Shown: positions 1,569 through 45,942, numbered from the stretch's first letter. The stretch: DNA of 64,000 nt from Sphaerodactylus townsendi (GCF_021028975.2 NC_059429.1:73966001-74030000); one strand, 5' to 3'. Numbers and translations: made by a program. The notes: a model not told the origin generated them from the sequence alone.

Positions 1569-4500
1569 CTGGTGAAAAAGGAGATGGGAAAGAGTGCCGA
1601 GCAGAGGGCACACAAGGCTGCAGGCAAAATACATATTTCTCGAGAAGACAATATTGGTAAAAGTGACATTATTGGTACAAGGTTGTTTCATGTTATGAGG
1701 TGGAACAACAGCCAGAAATGTATCCCATTGATGTCCTGGCATTTTACTAGAGCAAGTTCAAAGATCTGTTTCCTCTTTGCTGGACTAGTATGCTACTGTT
1801 TCTGCTGAACTTCCAGAAGGTTACAGTGATTCCAATAGCATCCACGAGAAGTCTATAGAACTTAAATACTAAGTTTCTTTGGAAACATGTGGCCCCCTTC
1901 AAGTATTCTAAGGACATCTTTTGCCATTAGCAGGTCTCTAAATTTCTGAAGAAGTGATCTCAGCAAGTATGTGGAGAGCATCAAAAGAAATGAGGACCTT
2001 TTAGGATACTAGTGGTATAGTGTCCTTATATAAGCTGAACTGAATCATATAGAACACCCAAACTATCTTACAACTCATCCCTTCTATTTTTCAGAAGACC
2101 AACATGAAAACAGAAGTTGTGTGCAGCAAAATGGGGTGGAATAAATGAATACACAGGTAAGTAATTATGAAGAGCCTTGTCCCATAGCTTGGCCCAAAAC
2201 AAAGTTCCCCATATCAAAATGTATGTTAGTCCACCAAAGTCCTAATTGACAGAGGCTAAAATAAGAATCCACCACTCCAGCATTCTCATGGACTATTAGT
2301 ACACATCTCAAATTTCCCAGGCAACATCTTTGACAATATAGACTGGGGACACTACCATTTTCCATTCTCCTTCTGTCCCTTAGGATCTTTGACTTGAATA
2401 GTTCATCGTCCAACCTCTGATTCTCCAGCTCAACAGCCAGAAGTTCAGCATCCAAACCCTGTGGGCTACCTTCATATTCTGCAATGGTAGGAAGGAATGC
2501 CAATTACCAACAGAGTTGAGGAAGTGAAAGAGGTGGGAAGAATTTGCTAAGGTTTCTGAGTTAACATAGCAAACAGGGTATCTTAAAGGCTAACAAAGTA
2601 TGACAGTTTGAGCTTTCATAAGAAATACCACCCTTCATTCCATGGTTTTCCCTAGGCTCCCAGTGGTGAGACTGGGCCTTGGCATAGTTTGGAAACACTA
2701 AGCCCAGCTGAGTCTAAGGAGGATGGGCAAATGCTAGAGTTAAGGGATGAAGAGACAGTCCTGCTGTCCTAGTCTGTGCCACAAAAACCAAGTTTGAGGG
2801 GAAGGTAGTAGGGAAATAGAACTCACTCTTCTTTCTGCCCTTGAGCTCAGGCCTTGATCCAGCTTTCTCCAGGGCTACGGCCTCCACCTGCAGCTCATAC
2901 ATCTGTCTGAGGATGTTGTGATCATTGTTTCCACTCTGCATGTAAGCCAGATACAGAGCCCTGCAGGAAACACATAAAGTCATTATCAAGTTCCTCACAA
3001 CATCCCTACATTATTTATTCCTCACAGGAGTTTATATGACTTGATTTTCAGCATCACAGGCCAAAGTTCAACTGGGTGATCTTTTTATGGAGATGAAAGA
3101 ATGGAGAAAGCTGCTATATTATGGAGATGAAAGAATGGAGGAATGTGTTTAATGCTTGCTTGTGATACAACTGTTAAAGGCTCAATGTTAGGGAGAGGAA
3201 GATGGCAACTCTACAGACTACAATACATCCACTGGAGTTTTCCCCTCTCTCAACCAGTGAAAAGTGCCAAGACAACCCACTCAGAGTTGTAAATTGTAAA
3301 AATGTCCTTAAATTGTAAGAATTCCCTAAAATGTCAACATTCATATTAATTCTCTCTGTTGACAGAAAGCATTGCTCTGTTCATCTTCTCACTATTTTTT
3401 GCTCACTGTATCTCTGAAGAGAGAGGTCCAACAGCTGCAGGGAATGGCAAAAGCCTGAGGGAGACCTTCTTTTCCATTTTGCTTGCAGTACTGCTTGTCT
3501 TTATATTGGTTGGGGGTTCTGGTTTGCCTCTAAAAAGAAATGAAACAGGAAGGATAAAGATATGTATAAAAGCTTGACTTTTTTTTTCTCTTGCCGCTGG
3601 TTCCTTCCCTTCTCAACCTACTCTAAAAATTATGGATGACTGGATGGATCTTAGTATGGTCCTGGACCTCTTCAGATCTAAACATAATGACTTGGTTCTC
3701 ATATCAGGATCATAAAGACCGGGAGCGATCTTCTAATCTAAGCCCTGTGATCCCCAATGTAGTACCCAGGGATACCATGGTGCGTGCCAATGGTTATCCT
3801 GGTACCTGATTATTTTTCCTCCAAACTATGTCTTCCCTAAACAGAAGGGCCAGTTCTGGCTTTCTTCCACACCATTGGAATGGGAAACTTCAGGACACCC
3901 CAGGAAGTTTCACCTTTGGGTTTGCATTTGAAACAATTTATTCCATCACAGAAGAATGCTTGGCTTAGAACCCATCAGCATTCTGTGATCATCCCATCCA
4001 TAGCAGACATTTTGTGGTGGCACCCAGTATGGTTCCTCAAAATTACCCATTTCTTCAGATTTAACAAACTTGCAGACCCCTGTTCTAGCCCCATGACATA
4101 CATATCCTGCATCTACGGCAAGTGGCTGTCTCCCTTGCAGTCTTACTTGCTGTCTGTTGCTGCCTGCAGATGTCCAACCTGTTCCCGCAAGGCATCCAAG
4201 GCAAGCAGGTTCTTCCCCTCCTGGTTTTTCAGCTCCACTAGTAGTTGCTCAATGTGAGATGTAACTGAATTCCCTAACTTCATCTCTGACAAGCGCCCTC
4301 GGATCTCTGGACAAATAAAAAATTGGATGCAGAATAGTGGAGTATCTGAGTTACATCTACTGATATTCTCTGAATCCCATCCCTGTTTAGAATATAATCT
4401 GTCAGAGCCCTGATCCACCAGACTGAGGACATCCATATCTGTGCTGGGTTAATATGTTATCTCTGGTCTACTTCTTAAAAACTGATGAGGTGGCAAATGA

Positions 4501-7500
4501 CCATCAGATTACAGGTGAAGGCTCATATAGTACAAATGTTCCCCACAAGAAAGATCCCTACATACAGAAGACCTAAAAATCAGAGAAAAGGCAAGGCTAA
4601 TAAACCTTCTCCCTAACATGTTAGTTTTATATGGGCAGCAAATGTTGTTCCACAAAAGAGCACACAGATCCTCACCTGTAGTCTGAAACTGTACAAAAAA
4701 GTAACAGATCTGTCTCCTCATTAAGTACATGTAGCTTAGGTCTTGCTATACATTGCCATGTCCTCATTTTGTTGATGGATAACATGAGGCACTCGTATAA
4801 AATGTGCTGAAGGATGTTTTGGGTCTCCCGATACACACCAGTCCTTTCTTGCTTATGACTTTGGAATGTGAAGAAAAGTGATTTCAGAGTGTGTGTCCCC
4901 CGTTCCCCCCGCCTCTCCATTTCTGCATCCTTAAACCATTCCATTCAGCTGCTATTGGATTCAACACAAAATTCATGTAAGCCAGATGAACCTGCAATGG
5001 AGCTACCAGTAATAACGGCTTCATAGGGCAGTCATAAGATGCAAAAAAGGCATTGGCAGAGGCAGGGAAGGATGAAACTGCTCCTCCCTGTACACTGTAG
5101 TTGTTGGCAGAACAGGGTTGGCATGCTTGTGGAAGGAGCAAAACTCCTGTCATGTACCTAGTATAAAGTCATTCTGAATTCTCATTAATATGCATCAGTG
5201 AGTCAGCTCCTAGATTTAAAAACACAACTGGCCATCTAAGCTGCAGTCAAGTTCTTTCTATCTAGCGGCATCTCCTCTCCGTTTCCAGAACTTGTGAGGG
5301 GACAAGCTCTGTGTGCCAGTCCCAGGCCTTTCCTGTTCGATCTTAGCTGTTGGGCTGGACAGTTCAGGTCAGGTCACTCCTTGAAATGGGTTTAAGGGCA
5401 AAGGGCATCTACAGGAGTCTGATAATCCAGTATGTGCTCTAATTTTCTCCTACCATTCCTCTGCTGTTCTAGATAAAGGTTCCTGGCCTGGATATCAGCC
5501 AACTGATGGTCATATGCTTCTGCCAATTGCTCCTGGCGCAGCCAGAATTCCTGCTGATGGAGCATTTGGTGTCTGTTCTCATCCTAGGAGACAACCAAAA
5601 ATGAACTTTAGCACTTTAATCAGTAATCCCTCAGAACTAAGTAATCCTAAAATATATCAGAGAGGAACCAAAAGAGTTTTTGCATTGCTCTTCTCTCTTC
5701 CAGTTAATCCTCACAACACCCTTGTGAGGGTGAGGCTGAGAGATTGTGAGAAGCCCATAGCCACCTGCCAGACTTCCATGGATGAATGTGGGATTTGAAC
5801 CAGGTCATCCCAGGCATCAGTGCTACACTCTAACCACTAGGAAACACCAGTCCTCCACCAACCCATTTCTGGGGACAGAGGGATTTACATATGCAGAATG
5901 TAATTTTCTTGTACCCTCATCTATTGCAGCCCCAAATGCCGCCTGAAATGCATCAGAGAGACAGGCAAAGCCCAAGAATAGCTGGGGAATTGGGAGTCAA
6001 AGTTCTCTCTCTGCTGTGAGAGAAGGGAATCAGGAAAACTCCTTTCCTTCTGTCTCTGGAAACCCTCTGTGGGATCCAAGCCAATAGGTGAAAAGTCAAA
6101 TGTGAATTCTTGGAGAGAAAGTCACAGCATGTCACCTACTGATAGATCTATGTAGTATATTGATCAGAACACTGGGCTTGGAAGTGGGAAATACAGGTTC
6201 AAATGCTTGTCCACCTATATAAACTGGTGTGGTATGGCAGAGTGCTGAACTAGGGTTGGGAATACCAATGTTTGGGTTTCAGCTCAGCCTCTTCAAGTTG
6301 CACTGCAAGACCAGCTTGTTTGCCCTGGCTTTGCAGGGGTTTGAATGGCAAGCATCTTTGGAGGAAGAGAGATTTATTTTATCTTTAGTTTTAGCTAGGG
6401 ATGTTTTAACTATTACTGTAAGCCAACTAGAACCAAGAGGAAAGGCAGAATATACATGTTTCATCAAACAGACTAACAAACAAAATAAAAGTGTCCTGGG
6501 TAAACTTGTGCCAGTCACTCCACTCATGACAGAACAGTTCATAGGGTTACTGTGAGGATGAAATAGTGGAGGGGAGAACCTTGTGTGCTTAATTTGAGCA
6601 TTTGGAGGAAGGCTGAAATAAAAATATGATTGACAGATGACATTGGGCAATTCACTCTCTAAGCCCACCACATTTCTGAAGATTACCTTAAGAGCACCTT
6701 AAAGAGCCACCATGGCATAGTGCCGTGGTGGCGAACCTTTGGCACTCCAGATGTTATGGACTACAATTCCCATCAGCCCCTGCCAGCATGGCCAATTGGC
6801 CATGTGAGGGGACAAGCTCTGTGTGCCAGTTCCAGGCCTTTCCTGTTCCAATTGGCCATGCTGGCAGGGGCTGATGGGAATTGTAGTCCATAACATCTGG
6901 AGTGCCAAAGGTTCGCCACCACTGACTGTAGTGGTTAAGAGCAGTGGACTGTAACCTAGAGAACCAGTTGGTTGTGGCGGGTTTTCCGGGCTGTGTGGCT
7001 GTGGTCTGGTGGATCTTGTTCCTAACGTTTCACCTGCATCTGTGGCTGGCATCTTCAGAGGTGTATCACAGAGATGCCAGACACAGATGCCAGCCACAGA
7101 TGCAGGCGAAACGTTAGGAACAAGATCCACCAGACCACGCCACACAGCTCGGAAAACCCACCACATCCAGTTGAATCCGGCCGTGAAAGCCTTTAACAAT
7201 ACTAGAGGACTAGGTTCGATTCCCCACTCTTCCACATGAAGTCTGCTAAATATCCTTGAATCAGTCAGTTATCTTAGAACTTTCTCAGTCCATGCAGAGC
7301 TAGGCCATGGCAACCCACCTCCAAACATCTCTTGCCTTGAAAACCCTAAGGGGTTGCCATAAGTCAGCTGCGACTTGATGGCATTCATACACACAGCCCC
7401 TTAGAGACCAACAGGATTTCCAGGGTCAGATACAAAGGCAAGCTTTGACTCTTGAAAGTTTGTGCCCTGGAAATATTGTTGGGGTTTAAAGTGCTACTGG

Positions 7501-13100: not shown

Positions 13101-13558
13101 TCACAAGATTGGGTTATACCATGCTGCCTTCTTTCCCCTACCGCATACTACTGATTACAGGTGACGACCTCTTTGTGGTATGTACACATCCACAAAAACA
13201 TAAAAGACTGGTATTTTATAAAACATCTGGGAAAGCCTTACATATTAATAGGTCATTAAAACAAATGGACAAAACTCTACCATTCCCATTTTCAACCTCC
13301 AAAATGTAAAGAAGTTGCAAATGGAAGCAATATATACTTTTCAGTCAGTCCGGGATCAACAAAATCTCCTACTGTGCTGTCTGGTGCCTCCATTTGCTTT
13401 GGCTCTTTCCCTCTTCTCAGTGCTTGTCTCTTCTGGTCTCTGGCATCATTTGTAGTTTCTCCTCCAATACAGAATTTTTCCACATGCTTCTGTAGCAGCT
13501 GCCTGGAACGGAATCTCATCTCACAGCAAGGGCAGTGGAAAGCCATCAGATCTGACAT
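1339..13558 (-). CDS. CCDC17: CCDC17-like coiled-coil protein, 5' part of gene (continues beyond left edge)
   Basis: Nine phase-compatible GT-AG exons: 13558-13373, 11299-11150, 9106-9044, 5583-5454, 4306-4147, 3529-3407, 2960-2827, 2478-2356, 1568-1339. The peptides CxxCxMxFRSxxLLxxHxxxFCIG, ALKKLTEE, ALYLAYMQSG..YELQVEAVALE, VELENQRL and LLPPPIAPPLP match CCDC17 as recalled. Confidence 0.82.
2356..2478 (-). CDS. CCDC17: CCDC17 coding exon 8 (YEGSPQGLDAELLAVELENQRL...)
   Basis: ttgcag acceptor, G|GTAGTG donor, phase 1 to 1. Confidence 0.82.
2827..2960 (-). CDS. CCDC17: CCDC17 coding exon 7 (ALYLAYMQSG...KGRKK)
   Basis: cctgcag acceptor, A|GTGAGT donor. Confidence 0.85.
3407..3529 (-). CDS. 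CCDC17: CCDC17 coding exon 6 (GKPEPP...GPLSSEI)
   Basis: tttttag acceptor, CA|GTGAGC donor, phase 2 to 2. Confidence 0.8.
4147..4306 (-). CDS. CCDC17: CCDC17 coding exon 5 (EIRGRLSEMK...QAATDS)
   Basis: tgtccag acceptor, AA|GTAAGA donor, phase 1 to 2. Confidence 0.82.
5454..5583 (-). CDS. CCDC17: CCDC17 coding exon 4 (DENRHQ...LEQQRN)
   Basis: tcctag acceptor, G|GTAGGA donor, coiled-coil peptide, phase 0 to 1. Confidence 0.78.
6723..6924. mobile_element. Palindromic hAT MITE with a central captured insert
   Basis: Arms are reverse complements; TIR C(A/C)GTGGTGGCGAACCT; same family as 16749-16894. Confidence 0.88.
6966..7202. mobile_element. Penelope-like element end, inverted pair
   Basis: Inverted copies of gatgccagccacagatgcagg(c/t)gaaacgttagg; 3' end gtgaaagcctttaacaatac. 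Confidence 0.8.
7021..7061 (-). ncRNA. Minimal type I hammerhead ribozyme motif (PLE-associated)
   Basis: Reverse complement CCU-CUGAAGA-stem II-GAAAC-GUU-AGG; core intact. Confidence 0.65.
8571..8734 (-). mobile_element. Penelope-like element 3' fragment with hammerhead motif (8657-8696)
   Basis: Same family as 6966-7202; CUGAAGA...GAAACGUU on the minus strand. Confidence 0.8.
9044..9106 (-). CDS. CCDC17: CCDC17 coding exon 3 (FHKLRMSLEDTLPTFKTSQAE)
   Basis: ttttacag acceptor, GAG|GTAAAG donor, 63 nt. Confidence 0.8.
9383..9843. mobile_element. Non-autonomous hAT (Charlie/OC1-like TIR)
   Basis: TIR (c/t)agtgatggcgaacc / ggtttaccatcactg; exact 8-bp TSD CTATACAC. Confidence 0.9.
10081..10370 (-). 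mobile_element. L2-type LINE 3' end with (TAA)n microsatellite tail
   Basis: (TTA)n at 10083-10136 abutting aaaccgccctccccgaagggctcagggcgg, the reverse complement of the L2 tail at 55141-55198; 5' boundary approximate. Confidence 0.7.
11150..11299 (-). CDS. CCDC17: CCDC17 coding exon 2 (...NQALKKLTEE)
   Basis: Donor GAG|GTACTA; exon starts at either 11299 or the in-frame 11290. Confidence 0.7.
11944..12309. mobile_element. GC-rich non-autonomous hAT
   Basis: TIR cagagatgta / tacgcctctg; degenerate 8-bp TSD; shares subterminal sequence with 47452-47980. Confidence 0.65.
12301..12414 (+). repeat. Tandem duplication, 61-bp period
   Basis: acgcctctggtgagcaagctaatctct...cttaac at 12301 and 12362. 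Confidence 0.9.
13373..13558 (-). CDS. CCDC17: CCDC17 first coding exon (MSDLMAFHCPCCEMRF...APDST)
   Basis: Acceptor ttcctag 20 nt upstream of the ATG; donor ACA|GTAGGA, phase 0 (donor less certain). Confidence 0.75.
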
Positions 13559-16224
13559 CTTTAGAAGTTTCTGATGTTCTAGGAAAGGCATTGATTATCT
13601 GAAATGTGCCAGCCACTTGATCTTCACTAGCATAACAGAGATACGCAGTTATAGCTACAGGATTTGTGAAGAGCTTTGACACTGCACGTATAGATATTTT
13701 CTTTACACAACTTCATAAAACTGCACCTCACAGAGGCCCTGATGTTTCTTAAAAATTGCTTGGACGCATCCTTCTGCCCCTTTATATATGTCTTGCCAAC
13801 TTCTAGTGGCATACAGACCACTTCTGAGTGACCCAAGAATTAACCAGATATCACTACACCTGTTCCCTAGTGATAGCCAGCGGATTTTGGTCATAGTGAG
13901 GAAGAGAAAGGAGCCATAACTACCAATACCCTCTATCATAAAGTCATGGTTTTGTTTTTCCAGGCATTGTAAGCTTGACCTCACCAGACAAGCGAGGCAG
14001 TTCTCTATGGAGTGGGAAATATTGTACAGCCGTATTGGTCCATGCAAAATCCAAAACAAAGAACAAAATCCATGTAATAGCTTTTATTCCGACAAACCAA
14101 GTCAACACAAAACATTGTGTAACCTCTTGAACTCACTAGAATTCCTTATCAGGGCAGGTTACAAAAATTTAAAAGATAGAAACAATAAAAGAAGATTTAT
14201 CAGGGCCTGAAGCACTAACGGGGAAATGCCAGCTCCCTGAAGATCTGCACATATCTATATGTGCAGCATCAAAGCCTAGCTGCTGGCACAGCTGGGGGCA
14301 GATAGGGGTATTACTGGGGTGGACTTTACTTGGTTTCCACAATCCTTCCAAGCCAGGAATGCCCTAGCATAGCCCTTGGACTTATGCCACCCTTTCCTTT
14401 TGTCCTATGGAAGGCTTTCAAGGACACAATTTCCCCCCCATTTTTGCTACTGCACCGGAGCCCTCTGGTGGAGGTGCAGCAGTGATGCTGCCGTTGGCCA
14501 CCACAGCCTCTGCACTGAGCCATAAAAATCACAAGTAGTCAATTAATTTTATTGCTGGTGTGTAACCACAGCACATTCACCAGGAAGCAGAATTCAATCG
14601 CAGTATCAATTCTTTGATCTTTCACACAAATACAGAAACCAACACAAGTCCCGCCAAAATTGTCTCAAATATCATGGGGCCTTCTGATCTGCCAGCCCCC
14701 CAATATACTATGGTTACCAGCATTTCCCAGGAACTTTCAGATACTACACTAGAGACTTGCCACATGTAACAGGGGCAAGTGTCCTCAAGTTTAATTTAAA
14801 GAAATAAATTAGAGAAAGGCTGGCTTCATAGCTCCATCCTCTAGGCCTAGTCACATGATAGAGGAAGAAAAAGGACAAATGCTCGGTTAATGTTTGTGTT
14901 AAGTGGAAATAAACATTTCCAAGATTACTTCTTGGTTTAGAAGTGCTGCATGATAGACAGATGGGGGTGCATGAGGGCATTCATTAGAATTGTATTTGAG
15001 TGGGGAGGAGGGGGAAACAGGAGGAAATGCATCCCTGTACCTCAAGAAAACCCCCAAAGTGAATGCAATTCAAGGACTAACCTGTTCTGAAGCAGAGTGG
15101 TTTTTGTTGCCTGCCCCGGAAAGGACTCGAACCAGCACTTAGAGTTTCCAGTTGCTATGCTGGTAACTGAGGGTGGTGCCAGTCTGCCAAAATAATAGTG
15201 CAAAGGAGCCCAGCAAGGCGAGGATTATCTCCATGGATATGGCTACTGTTTATGTTGGCATTCACTTTGGTTGGCATAAATAGCACCTAGGGACCAGTAA
15301 GAATGTAGCTTGTTAATATTTTGGCTGTTATGAGAGAGAGGGGTGACCTGTTATCAGAGAGTTGTATAGGATGACAATGGAGATTAAATTGACCAAAAGT
15401 AAACACAACATGTTGCATGAACCAAAGTTTTAAGAGCCATTATTCAAAAAAGTGTAGCACACTGAGAATCTGTGATAAAGGAGCTGATCCCGTGCGTACC
15501 TGGACAGTAGCATTCCCAACTCCTGGTGGGGAATACCTGGAGAGTCTGGGGATGTAGCCTAGAGAAGGAAGGGACCATCCTCAGTATAGTTTAATACCTT
15601 AGAACTCAGTCTCCAAAGCCAGCCCTTCTGCCCCAGGGCAATTGCTGTCTGAAGGTGAGTTGTAACTTCATGAGATCTCTATGTCCTGGGTAACCCTGGA
15701 GAGTGTGCCTGAAGCAGTCTTGTGTTGTTGCACACACTTGTAGGCAGGGACGTAGGTATAGATTTTTTATGGGGGGGGTTCGGGGGGGCCACACCCCCAC
15801 CCGCCCCTAGGGCATGGCCATGCCTCCCCAAGCCCTGCCCCCAGCCTAGAGCTTATAAAGCAGCTCTCCAAGGCCAAGGACGGCAGACTCCCCCGCCCTG
15901 CCCTCCCCTGCCCTCCACCAGCTGGGCTCCAAGCCGGCAGCTGGCAGTTCCTTCTGCCCTCCCCTCTGGGAAGAAGCGTAGAGGGAAAATGGAGCCCGGT
16001 GCAAAATCTGAGTCCCCCCCGCTGCCCCCCCCCCGGGCAGCCGCTGTGATGCTGGAATCCACCCCCAAACAGCATCACTTTCAATGGTGTTTAAACTGGA
16101 GAGCCCAAATTCTCCTTTTAAATCCACCTTAAAGGGAGAATCTGGGGTCCCCAGTTAAATAACATTGAAAGTGATGCTGTTTGGGGGTGGATTATCCCCC
16201 ACCATGAAACAGCATCACTTTCAA

Positions 16225-16520
16225 TGTGGCGTAGTGGTTAAGAGCAGGTGCTTTCTAATCTGGAGGAACCGGGTTTGATTCCCTGCTCTGCCACTTGAGC
16301 TGTGGAGGCTTATCTGGGGAATTCAGATTAGCCTGTACACTCCCACACACGCCAGTTGGGTGACCTTGGGCTAGTCACAGCTTTTCAGAGCTCTCTCAGC
16401 CCCACCCACCTCACAGGGTGTTTGTTGTGAGGGGGGAAGGGCAAGGAGATTGTAAGCTCCTTTGAGTCTCCTACAGGAGAGAAAGGGGGATATAAATCCA
16501 AACTCTTCTTCTTCTTCTTC
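16225..16520 (+). mobile_element. Squam3-like tRNA/CORE SINE
   Basis: tggcgtagtggttaag A box, gggtttgattcc B box, gtgaccttgggc core, (TTC)n tail. Confidence 0.85.
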
Positions 16521-16629: not shown

Positions 16630-17440
16630 ACCAAACTTTTGGGGTATCTTTAGGAGACTCTCCTAATGATACCACCCAGTTTTGGTGAAGTTTGGTTCAG
16701 GGGGTCCAAAGTTATGGACCCTCAAAGGTGTAGCCCCATCTCCTATTACCGTGGTGGCAAACCTTTGGCACTCCAGATGTTATGGACTACAATTCCCATC
16801 AGCCCCTGCCAGCACAGCCAATTGGCCATGCTGGCAGGGGCTGATGGGAATTGTAGTCCATAACATCTGGAGTGCCAAAGGTTTGCCACCACTGTCCTAT
16901 TACCTCCCATTGGAAACAATGGGGGATGGGGCACCCCCTTCGGAAGTCTATAGCTTTGGACCCCCTGGACCAAACTTCACAAAACCTGGACGGTATCAGT
17001 AAGAGACTCTCCTGATGTTACCTCCCAGGTTTGGTGAAATTTAGTTCAGGGTGTCCAAAGTTATGGACCCTCAAAGGTGTAGCCCTCATCTTCTGTTAGC
17101 TCCCATTGGAAACAATGGAGGATGGGTCACCCCCTTTGGGAGTCCATAACTTTGGACCCCCTGGACCAAACTTCACAAAACCTAGGTGGTATCAGTAAGG
17201 GACTCTCTTGATGATACCACCCAGGTTTGGTGAAATTTAGTTCAGGGTGTCCAAAGTTATGGACCCTCAAAGGAGTAGCCCCCATCTTCTATTAGCTCCC
17301 ATTGGAAACAATGGAGGATGGGGGCACCCCCTTTGGGAGTCCATAACTTTGGACCCCCTCAACCAAACCTCACCAAACCTGGGTAGTATCATCAGGAGAG
17401 TCCACCAAACAATCCCTGAAAGTTTGGTGCTGCTAGCCCA
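16630..17440 (+). repeat. Tandem array, ~196-bp unit, about 3.3 copies
   Basis: ccaaacttcacaaaacct recurs at 16970 and 17166; units contain internal inverted motifs. Confidence 0.85.
16749..16894. mobile_element. Intact 146-bp palindromic hAT MITE
   Basis: Near-perfect palindrome centred on CCAATTGG; exact 8-bp TSD TCCTATTA. Confidence 0.93.
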
Positions 17441-18120: not shown

Positions 18121-19139
18121 CTCAGTTTAGAAGAAGACGACGACTTTGGATTTATATCCCCCCTTTCTCTCCTGTAGGAGACTCAAAGGAGCTTACAATC
18201 TCCTTGCCCTTCCCCTCTCACAACAAACACCCTGTGAAGTGGGTGGGGCTGAGAGATCTCCGAGAAGCTGTGACTAGCCCAAGGTCACCCAGCTGGTGTG
18301 TGTGGGAGTGCACAGGCTAATCTGAATTCCCCAGATAAGCCTCCACAGCTCAAGTGGCAGAGCAGGGAATCACACCCGGTTTCTCCAGATTAGAAAGCAC
18401 CTGCTCTTAACCACTATGCCACATTGAAAGTGATGCTGTTTCAGGGTGGGGGATAATTCACCCCAAAACAACATCACTTTCAATGTTGTTTAACTAGGGA
18501 CCCCAGATTCTCCCTTTAAGGTGGATTTAAAAGGAGAATTTGAGCTCTCTAGTTTAAACACCATTGAAAGTGATGCTGTTTGGGGGTGGATACCAGCATC
18601 ACAGCAGCTGCGAGGGGGGTGGGGGCAACTCAGATTTTGCACCAGGCTCCATTTTCCCTCTACGGAGAAGAATTTGGATTTAAATCCCCCCTTTCTCTCC
18701 TGTAGGAGACTCAAAGGGGTTTACAATCTCCTTGCCCTTTCCCCCTCACAACAAACACCCTGTGAGGTAGGTGGGGCTGAGATCTCTGAGAAGCTGTGAC
18801 TAGCCCAAGGGCATCCAGCTGGCATGTGTGGGAGTGTACAGGCTAATTTGAATTCCCCAGATAAGCCTCCACAGCGCAGGCGGCTGAGCTGGGAATCAAA
18901 CTGGCTTCCTCCAGATTAGATACATGAGCTCTTAACCTCCTACGCCACTATGCCGCTGCTGGCTGGGAGGGGGTGGGAGGGCAGGGGAATCTGCCCTCCA
19001 AGCCTTCGAGATCTGCTTTTATAATCGCAAGGCCAGGTGCGGGGCTTGGGGAGGCGTGGCCATACCCTAGGGGTAGGTGGGGGTGTGGTCCCACCCCCAA
19101 AGCCCCCCCCCCCCTAAAAAATCTATACCTACGTCCCTG
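18121..19139 (-). mobile_element. Truncated inverted copy of the composite hAT with two SINEs (18130-18422, 18665-18955)
   Basis: Reverse complement of 15745-16528, including the identical SINE junction. Confidence 0.8.
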
Positions 19140-19555
19140 CATAAGGTATAGTCGGTTTGGGATATCAAATGGCAACGTTTCTTGGAAGACACGTGCCCCA
19201 TCTACTTAAATGACTGCTGAAAAACGACATGTCCTGGGAGACCGTGACTTTAGAGGACGACATATCCCCTATACTTTCCACCAAATGAGTTACTCTCGGC
19301 TTCTTGAGTTGCGCGGCATTTTGGGAGATGTAGTTCTCTGTCAAACAAGGGTAGACGGAACCATGTGCCTAGCGGCATGCTGGTAGCTGTAGTTCTGCGG
19401 GTGTAAGCAATCGGAGAGATGTGGTCCCGGCAGGCTTTGCGGGACCGCCCCATTCAAAAGGGCAGCGGTTGGTTACATGTTTCTTTTCGCTACTGGTTTC
19501 GTGTTCGGAGGTGCTGTCTGTTTGCCGAGCCTCACCGGTGGCCTTGTCCAGTATT

Positions 19556-45942
<26,387 letters not shown>

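Follow-up and report, generated by a model that had tools for sequence, protein, structure and literature searches.

The insertion, its donor and the host element

The window analysed here is a 64,000-nt stretch of the Sphaerodactylus townsendi genome (NC_059429.1:73966001-74030000). On its minus strand, coiled-coil exons are predicted at 13280-13560 and 2866-2963 and at the two positions given in Table 1; they may belong to one gene, possibly one resembling CCDC17. The exon at 13280-13560 gives a weak C2H2-like match below the Pfam cut-off, and a search of 47 of the 64 listed frames (window 1-30,000) returned no Pfam family for the host gene above the curated cut-offs. On the plus strand, two frames at 19373-20986 match the N-terminal Pfam family of kinesin-13 (KIF2A-like), one of them above the cut-off. 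An insertion of 46 bp in a palindromic MITE, copied from a donor further upstream in the window, is the subject of this study. The donor lies in a predicted intron of the coiled-coil gene, and the MITE likely in the next intron upstream. The preliminary description had called the donor intronic, which agrees with the prediction; since a predicted exon (5454-5583) separates donor and MITE, however, the two would occupy different introns.

Table 1. Positions of the insertion, its donor, related MITE copies and predicted exons in the window
Feature	Position	Strand	Observation
Predicted next coding exon of host gene	4147..4306	-	Splice signals, phase
Filler donor, unique sequence, predicted intron	5293..5338	+	45/46 identity; 2 genome matches; between predicted exons
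Predicted coding exon between donor and MITE	5454..5583	-	AG/GT ends, open frame, phase fits next exon
Host MITE	6723..6924	.	146 bp plus 56 added bases; target-site duplication degenerate
13-bp duplication, first copy, spans axis	6792..6804	+	Left arm ends 7-9 nt past axis
46-bp templated filler, direct orientation	6803..6848	+	Donor match; X9 contig across it
13-bp duplication, second copy	6848..6860	+	Right arm retains 3-4 nt from across axis
Intact 146-bp copy, same subfamily	16749..16894	.	Perfect 8-bp target-site duplication 16741-16748 / 16895-16902
Half element, sister subfamily	36954..37031	+	Right arm alone; centre gone
Half element, same MITE family	40716..40799	+	Left arm ~3 nt past axis; right arm missing

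The host element is a near-perfect palindromic, non-autonomous hAT MITE of 146 bp carrying 56 added bases. Both of its ends are intact, in line with the earlier statement that the two terminal inverted repeats survive. Once the 56 added bases are taken out, what remains is a 146-bp palindrome departing at 4 sites from the intact copy at 16749, which does lack the filler, as had been described. Folded as a single strand, the restored element forms a 70-bp stem with a 4-nt loop. The host copy has no clean 8-bp target-site duplication; what is present is degenerate and one base longer on the right. The element breaks up the head of a SINE-like repeat (6706-6965). The intact copy at 16749 lies within a region of 196-bp tandem units, enclosed by a 465-bp inverted repeat (95%; 16025-16489 / 18159-18623).

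The family has the usual traits of MITEs, being short (146 bp), non-coding, bounded by terminal inverted repeats and present in high copy number (33,871 arms with perfect anchors in the genome). At least three arm subfamilies share one common palindromic core. An 8-bp target-site duplication (at least 7 of 8 bases matching) accompanies 144 of the 206 fetched elements in which both termini are present, and TA occupies positions 4-5 in 137 of these 144. This pattern fits nnnTAnnn, the target consensus reported for the Buster group of hAT elements (PMC3517528), and on these sequence grounds the family is classed as a hAT MITE with a Buster-type target site. Two elements, L008 and L029, are chimeric: the left end is B-type and the right end A-type. 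A sister family with the same arms and a non-palindromic centre was seen in the flanks of L122, L102, L115 and L134, and it would offer a natural control for the hotspot described below.

The filler is identical to its donor, 1,510 bp away on the same strand, at 45 of 46 bases, and identity ends abruptly on both sides; the sole difference is a C>T at 6831. This agrees with the preliminary description, as do the 13-bp duplication CCAATTGGCCATG, one copy of which lies on each side of the filler, and the short microhomology at the junctions (2 nt on the left, 1 nt on the right, near the level expected by chance). Without the shared junction bases the filler measures 43 bp. When a 25-nt core of the filler was searched with up to 2 mismatches in the 1.81-Gb genome (G000), exactly two matches were obtained, the donor and the insert, and a reversed-pattern control gave none. 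With only two genome matches to its core, the 46-mer is not a dispersed repeat, and an origin from such a repeat was rejected. The result supports a local event, as the preliminary description had supposed. Neither this core search nor a DNA search in which 40 of 680 candidates were scored revealed a second MITE with the 46-bp filler, and thus no onward transposition of the window copy was found.

On the position of the insert the preliminary description has to be corrected. It had placed the insert exactly at the centre of the palindrome. The symmetry axis of the host MITE is at 6795/6796, and the ends of the insert lie past it: the left arm extends 7-9 nt beyond the axis, the right arm resumes 3-4 nt before it, and the 13-bp duplication spans it. 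These past-axis ends are the informative feature of the window insertion.

The junctions were also looked for in short reads, with 4 of 9 runs (X1, X6, X7 and X9) compared with the window. A 98-nt contig from X9, an independent run of organism D, spans 6785-6864 without any difference and includes both junctions as well as the insert-specific base at 6831. Flank contigs of the same organism are ~98% identical to the window (~22 differences in 1,700 bases, plus indels). The filler is therefore present in organism D, and the insertion is likely older than the split from that organism. Flank contigs from the two runs of organism C, X6 and X7, match the window with 0 differences over 1,581 and 1,741 bases and include the left end of the host MITE. 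These two runs gave a contig for the donor and none for the junctions, and gaps in such contigs are not proof of absence; contig filtering or graph simplification in a very-high-copy repeat may be the cause, or the filler may be polymorphic. Contigs from X1 do not cover the site.

Insertions at the centre across the MITE family

The preliminary description had treated the event as a rare, lone fossil. This did not hold, as hundreds of family copies carry extra DNA at the centre. Using perfect 17-nt inner arm ends on both sides as anchors in G000, we found 586 loci with lengthened centres (316 by 2-28, 146 by 29-59 and 124 by 60-90 bases), alongside 3,947 loci with centres of normal length. An equal-sized window placed in the arm was lengthened in 254 of 33,871 arms. 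Inspection by eye of 100 listed arm rows showed nearly all to be self-duplications of the element, most of them breaking at the centre. Clear foreign filler of at least 15 nt was present in only 1 of these 100 rows, compared with 28 of 50 cases of the matching size bin at the centre. That single row, L146, proved to be a true foreign filler with a local donor, among two arm candidates that were fetched. The rate of foreign filler is thus ~1.8% of centres versus 0.008% of arm windows (upper bound 0.035%); the two denominators differ, and if all ~17,000 elements are used the difference is still more than tenfold. With the arm rows classified by eye, insertion junctions cluster around the symmetry axis rather than in the arms.

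Elements that happened to lie in the flanks of the fetched loci (~0.95 Mb) were also examined. Of 89 such bystanders, 18 still have the centre together with 25 nt of the arm beyond it, a rough figure since the flanks adjoin damaged copies and some centres hold poly-G that is likely misassembled. Of the 71 that do not, 54 have a surviving arm that passes the axis. Arrays of G- or C-runs start at the MITE centre in L005, L011, L022 and L171 (G000 C4:139318793, C12:47787948, C11:8296664 and C14:35848026), and those of the first three exceed 1 kb with a 16-nt period. These arrays are likely assembly artefacts of the hairpin, and because such kilobase poly-G centres resemble assembly error, part of the damaged class may be artefactual too. 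Many centres contain tandem copies of the element's own arm. At L030, L053, L062, L093, L105 and L178-L184 there are tandem arrays of the arm with periods of ~39-180 bp that break at the centre, which suggests that MITE tips seed minisatellites.

The positions of the junctions relative to the axis were determined for 55 foreign-filler events, taken, like the second sample below, from first-listed loci (contigs C1-C6) with perfect anchors, and hence a partial sample and not a full census. Among the 110 junctions the mode is 4 nt past the axis (+4; 29 of 110). Fifty junctions fall at +3 to +5, compared with 6 at -5 to -3, and 67 lie at +3 or more, where a blunt axial break would predict 1.7. Both ends pass the axis in 31 events, one end in 17 and neither in 7. 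Centre sequence is duplicated in 40 of the 55 events, as happens when bases from across the axis are retained at both ends. Duplication lengths extend from -16 to +52 and are anchored on the axis. A +4 end on both arms corresponds to duplication of the self-complementary 8-mer CCAATTGG.

A second sample consisted of 40 of the 316 loci in the smallest size class (the first 50 listed, minus 2 already sampled and the last 8). Filler was present in 31 of them, and 25 of their 62 junctions lie at +3 to +5 versus 8 at -5 to -3. Six of the 40 loci are pure 8-bp centre duplications of CCAATTGG, occurring in both arm subfamilies, and one locus has +11/+4 ends without filler. In a read comparison swamped by the repeat, many joints end at 6848; these were not counted toward +4, as the window's own junction stops alignments there. 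Since both arms usually run past the axis across the family, the 13-bp duplication in the window is one instance of a family-wide scar. Its right-arm end (3-4 nt) corresponds to the family mode, and its +9 end differs from it.

Donors were sought in the 5 kb to the left and to the right of 50 loci, the first listed among the 146 (the window included), and of 49 of the first 50 of the 124. One locus had been dropped from the latter set as the same element as L083, and after 6 redundant copies with shared fillers were collapsed 93 loci remained. At least 15 bases foreign to the MITE are present in 55 of these 93 independent loci. Twenty-four of the 55 foreign fillers match their own flanks better than those of any of the 98 remaining loci, where 0.56 would be expected; for 28 no donor was found within 5 kb, and 3 are ambiguous. 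We excluded 7 of the 24 (L099, L105, L110, L122, L131, L133 and L140), whose donors take in MITE arms or a neighbouring tandem copy. The remaining 17 fillers have a unique donor 180-2,365 bp away (median 724), 15 of them within 1.2 kb; 10 are direct and 7 inverted, and 9 donors lie downstream and 8 upstream. The 1.5-kb distance in the window is the second longest of the 17. No donor turned up between 2.4 and 5 kb for any filler examined, nor one at 5-15 kb for the 8 donor-less fillers that were tested. L002, which came from a biased search and is not counted, has a similar build, with a 45-nt exact inverted copy from ~1 kb away.

The 17 fillers provide 34 donor junctions, of which 16 are clean and 18 have extra unexplained bases or a second piece. 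Shared bases of 2 nt or more are present at 11 of the 16 clean junctions, compared with 15.6% by chance (P 3e-6). The fillers of L061, L064, L113 and L123 are repeated or composite. At L048 and L130, one or two telomere-like hexamers lie beside the centre junction and could reflect telomerase addition or slippage; as possible slippage products they were left out of the inference of overhang polarity.

Some filler-bearing copies have multiplied. One filler of 16-19 nt, with +9/+4 junctions like those in the window, occurs in ~20 copies on 9 contigs (L155 is possibly a poor duplicate of L157 in the count of 20). All have subfamily-A arms, and 9 of the 16 in which both termini were recognised have perfect, differing target duplications. 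No donor was found for this filler within 1.5 kb of the 20 copies or within 5 kb of 4 of them. A 57-nt filler, 92-94% related to a dispersed repeat, is present in 5 elements, 4 of them with B arms and one (L149) with A arms on both sides. L149 (G000 C5:4205113) lies 7.2 kb from the B-arm element L150 (C5:4212314), which has the same filler. This one case hints at gene conversion at a broken tip that carried only the centre from one subfamily to another, which would be the simplest account of L149. A 72-nt filler is shared by two elements 324 kb apart (L114, G000 C2:177453028, and L115, C2:177776887) that have different target duplications, and no parent for it was found in the genome with up to 1 mismatch over 23 nt. 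The preliminary description had proposed that the window insertion shows how a Pack-type MITE could be born. For the window copy, for whose filler no second MITE-borne copy was found, this is not supported; other copies of the family, with their filler subfamilies and distinct target-site duplications, bear it out.

Probable repair of a break at the hairpin tip, and alternative explanations

We believe that the 46-bp filler probably records a germline double-strand break at the hairpin tip, and that the break was probably mended when an end primed by microhomology copied DNA lying close by. A cruciform-tip break with templated insertion had been proposed from the single site; it remains the best reading, and its support comes far more from the genome survey than from that site. 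The element itself is a near-perfect 146-bp palindrome, which could extrude as a cruciform or hairpin. Cleavage of each strand would follow a few bases to the 3' side of the tip, whether directly or through the opening of hairpin-capped ends after junction resolution. Nicks of a cruciform 3' of the tip and off-centre opening of capped ends would both yield two 3'-overhang ends, each reaching past the axis, most often by 4 nt. Resection can only remove bases, and therefore past-axis ends on both arms need a staggered, two-ended break. One 3' end would next anneal by 1-7 nt to exposed single-stranded DNA within ~2.5 kb, copy 15-80 nt and be rejoined. The 13-bp duplication in the window can be described as +9/+4, in which the +9 end possibly arose from a lower cut or from a short fold-back extension. 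At the level of the family, hundreds of copies with a like scar are observed.

The break, its timing, the polarity of its overhangs and the polymerase are inferred here from sequence. In mouse ES cells, tandem duplications were present in 60.9% of mutants from breaks with 3' overhangs versus 9.8% for those with 5' overhangs (PMC8355091), and large templated insertions at 3'-overhang ends are noted in a review (PMC7407515). Known candidate nucleases are GEN1 followed by Artemis, ERCC1-XPF, and MRE11/CtIP (PMC7999016, PMC12872147), among which the sequence does not choose. Polymerase theta, the usual candidate for the copying step, would be a candidate here as well. The preliminary description had named polymerase-theta end joining or abortive SDSA, between which the sequence does not distinguish.

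Template switching at a replication fork (FoSTeS/MMBIR) could give a similar product. A nascent strand would be displaced past the axis by refolding of its template, prime on nearby DNA and return slightly upstream. Such switching would account for local donors in both orientations, short microhomology, multi-step fillers and the tandem arm copies at many centres, and Tan et al. invoke it for multicopy Pack-TIRs (PMC8277862). However, the return point should then be scattered, yet both ends share the +4 mode and both lie past the axis in 31 of 55 events. Pure symmetric 8-bp duplications also exist. We therefore regard fork switching as unlikely.

It is also conceivable that the centre was broken and the filler was ligated or annealed as a free fragment, such as an oligonucleotide from resection or an Okazaki flap or a cDNA of a nascent transcript, rather than copied in place. 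Pieces freed near the break would fit the filler size of 15-80 nt and the capture radius of ~1-2.5 kb, donor and MITE here lie in one predicted transcription unit, and for roughly one filler in two no donor was found locally. In contrast, the excess of microhomology and the four repeated or composite fillers indicate rounds of primed synthesis, and neither poly(A) nor a spliced filler was seen, which leaves this explanation with a small chance of being right.

Retrotransposons usually produce target-site duplications of about the 13 bp found here, and a LINE-mediated retrocopy of an intron fragment was considered together with an assembly chimera at the hairpin. A retrocopy is countered by the absence of a tail and by duplication sizes that vary from -16 to +52 and follow the axis. 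The poly-G arrays show that assembly can fail at these hairpins, and the runs of organism C have no junction contig, as a chimera would predict; the X9 contig, however, carries both junctions together with a base that differs from the donor, and the filler-bearing subfamilies have distinct target-site duplications. Both origins are very improbable. A scar of hAT transposase, left when an element inserted in the hairpin tip (8-bp duplication of CCAATTGG, or +4/+4), excised and had the gap filled locally, would explain why the modal duplication has the 8-bp length of hAT target sites, and at one locus, L175, both termini lie between two CCAATTGG copies, but this explanation is largely refuted and scarcely credible, as only 11 matches at 6 places genome-wide join a +4 end to a terminus (mostly tandem half-duplications, with at most one nested-looking case) versus hundreds of scars, the centre lacks the TA that the family targets (137/144), and an 8-bp duplication cannot yield the 13 bp at the window site.

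Returning to the break at the hairpin tip, a broader proposal may be put forward tentatively, with somewhat more doubt than confidence, in which the MITE family has a capture device of its own. The tip of the MITE would be cut in the germline with a fixed 3' stagger, most copies would already be asymmetric, and a filler that breaks the symmetry would protect its copy. Transposition would then spread the filler, as would a homing-like conversion of newly broken centres in other subfamilies, which the A-arm L149 next to the B-arm L150 suggests.

Significance and relation to known systems

Taken alone, the insertion in the window is ordinary. The family as a whole amounts to hundreds to thousands of vertebrate germline repair outcomes at one identical substrate, comparable data being otherwise available only from transgenes or from rare disease alleles (Xq27.1). 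It makes countable the position at which natural cruciforms are cut (here ~4 nt past the tip), the reach of a broken end for its template (median ~0.7 kb) and whether Pack-type elements begin at a structural fragile site before they move. The pattern also traces how MITE centres can give rise to tandem repeats and new MITE subfamilies. If the reading of the MITE as a capture device is true, thousands of natural vertebrate germline repairs of breaks at one identical sequence would be recorded across the genome, and the unspecified fragile site in the birth of Pack elements would have been named.

The closest comparison is with the Pack-TIRs of Tan et al. (2021), who describe 370 cases in 100 animal genomes, attributed mostly to gap filling from nearby DNA, with fillers of more than 100 bp (PMC8277862). 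In that account 56.9% of donors lie within 15 kb, most of those at less than 5 kb, the median microhomology is 2 bp, multicopy Pack-TIRs lie far from their parents, and breakpoints have a moderate interior skew only, with internal fragile sites left unspecified (PMC8277862). The words palindrome, hairpin and MITE have no match in its main text (PMC8277862); palindromic MITEs could still be among the 370 cases listed in its supplement. As in Pack-TIRs, an element with intact terminal inverted repeats here holds a copy of nearby DNA, with a cis bias and short microhomology. At the window both termini flank non-element sequence with a unique parent that is 98% identical (at least 90% is required of Pack-TIRs); the 46 bp are fewer than the >100 bp of internal sequence required, though the insertion is Pack-TIR-like in its working. 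Its filler was not found in further copies, unlike those of other family members (20, 5 and 2 copies). Unlike Pack-TIRs, the fillers are 15-90 bp long, belong to one family and lie a few bases from the axis, and element sequence is duplicated rather than lost.

Similar breaks are known from palindromes. Revision of palindromes by centre breaks was reportedly described by Cunningham in 2003. Resolution of cruciforms has been assigned to GEN1 and then Artemis at PATRRs and to ERCC1-XPF at short inverted repeats (PMC7999016, PMC12872147, PMC3300023). In these cases, as proposed here, breaks occur at or near the palindrome tip, repair uses microhomology and central symmetry is lost. The cases described in these sources come from transgenes, plasmids and single human loci and are mainly deletions and translocations, whereas the MITE is a dispersed natural family with +4 ends on both arms and local capture. 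At human Xq27.1, a 180-bp quasi-palindrome is a germline insertion hotspot near its centre (PMC8990796). It is similar in size to this MITE and its centre likewise takes up DNA copies in the germ line, but it is one disease-ascertained locus with interchromosomal inserts of ~50-400 kb, compared with thousands of loci, inserts of tens of bases and mostly local donors, where one was found, for the MITE.

The window filler would also count as a templated insertion of TMEJ, in that it appears to derive from DNA near the break with microhomology. Templates in TMEJ and SD-MMEJ are usually adjacent to the break, and the donors of the MITE lie farther away, at hundreds to thousands of bases. Short microhomology, direct and inverted templates, multi-step fillers and duplication of overhangs are common to the MITE scars and to TMEJ/SD-MMEJ as described (PMC7407515, PMC8355091). 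In the full-text literature searched, which included few subscription papers and no supplements, we found no account of a family of MITEs in which the tips of the palindromes take up local DNA and bear a stereotyped overhang scar. The ingredients, namely breakage at palindrome centres, templated insertions and the gap filling of Pack-TIRs, are already known, and a single insertion is an event of a known kind. What appears to be new is the family-wide hotspot, the +4 signature, the chain from capture to new subfamily, and the union of these at such a scale in one MITE family.
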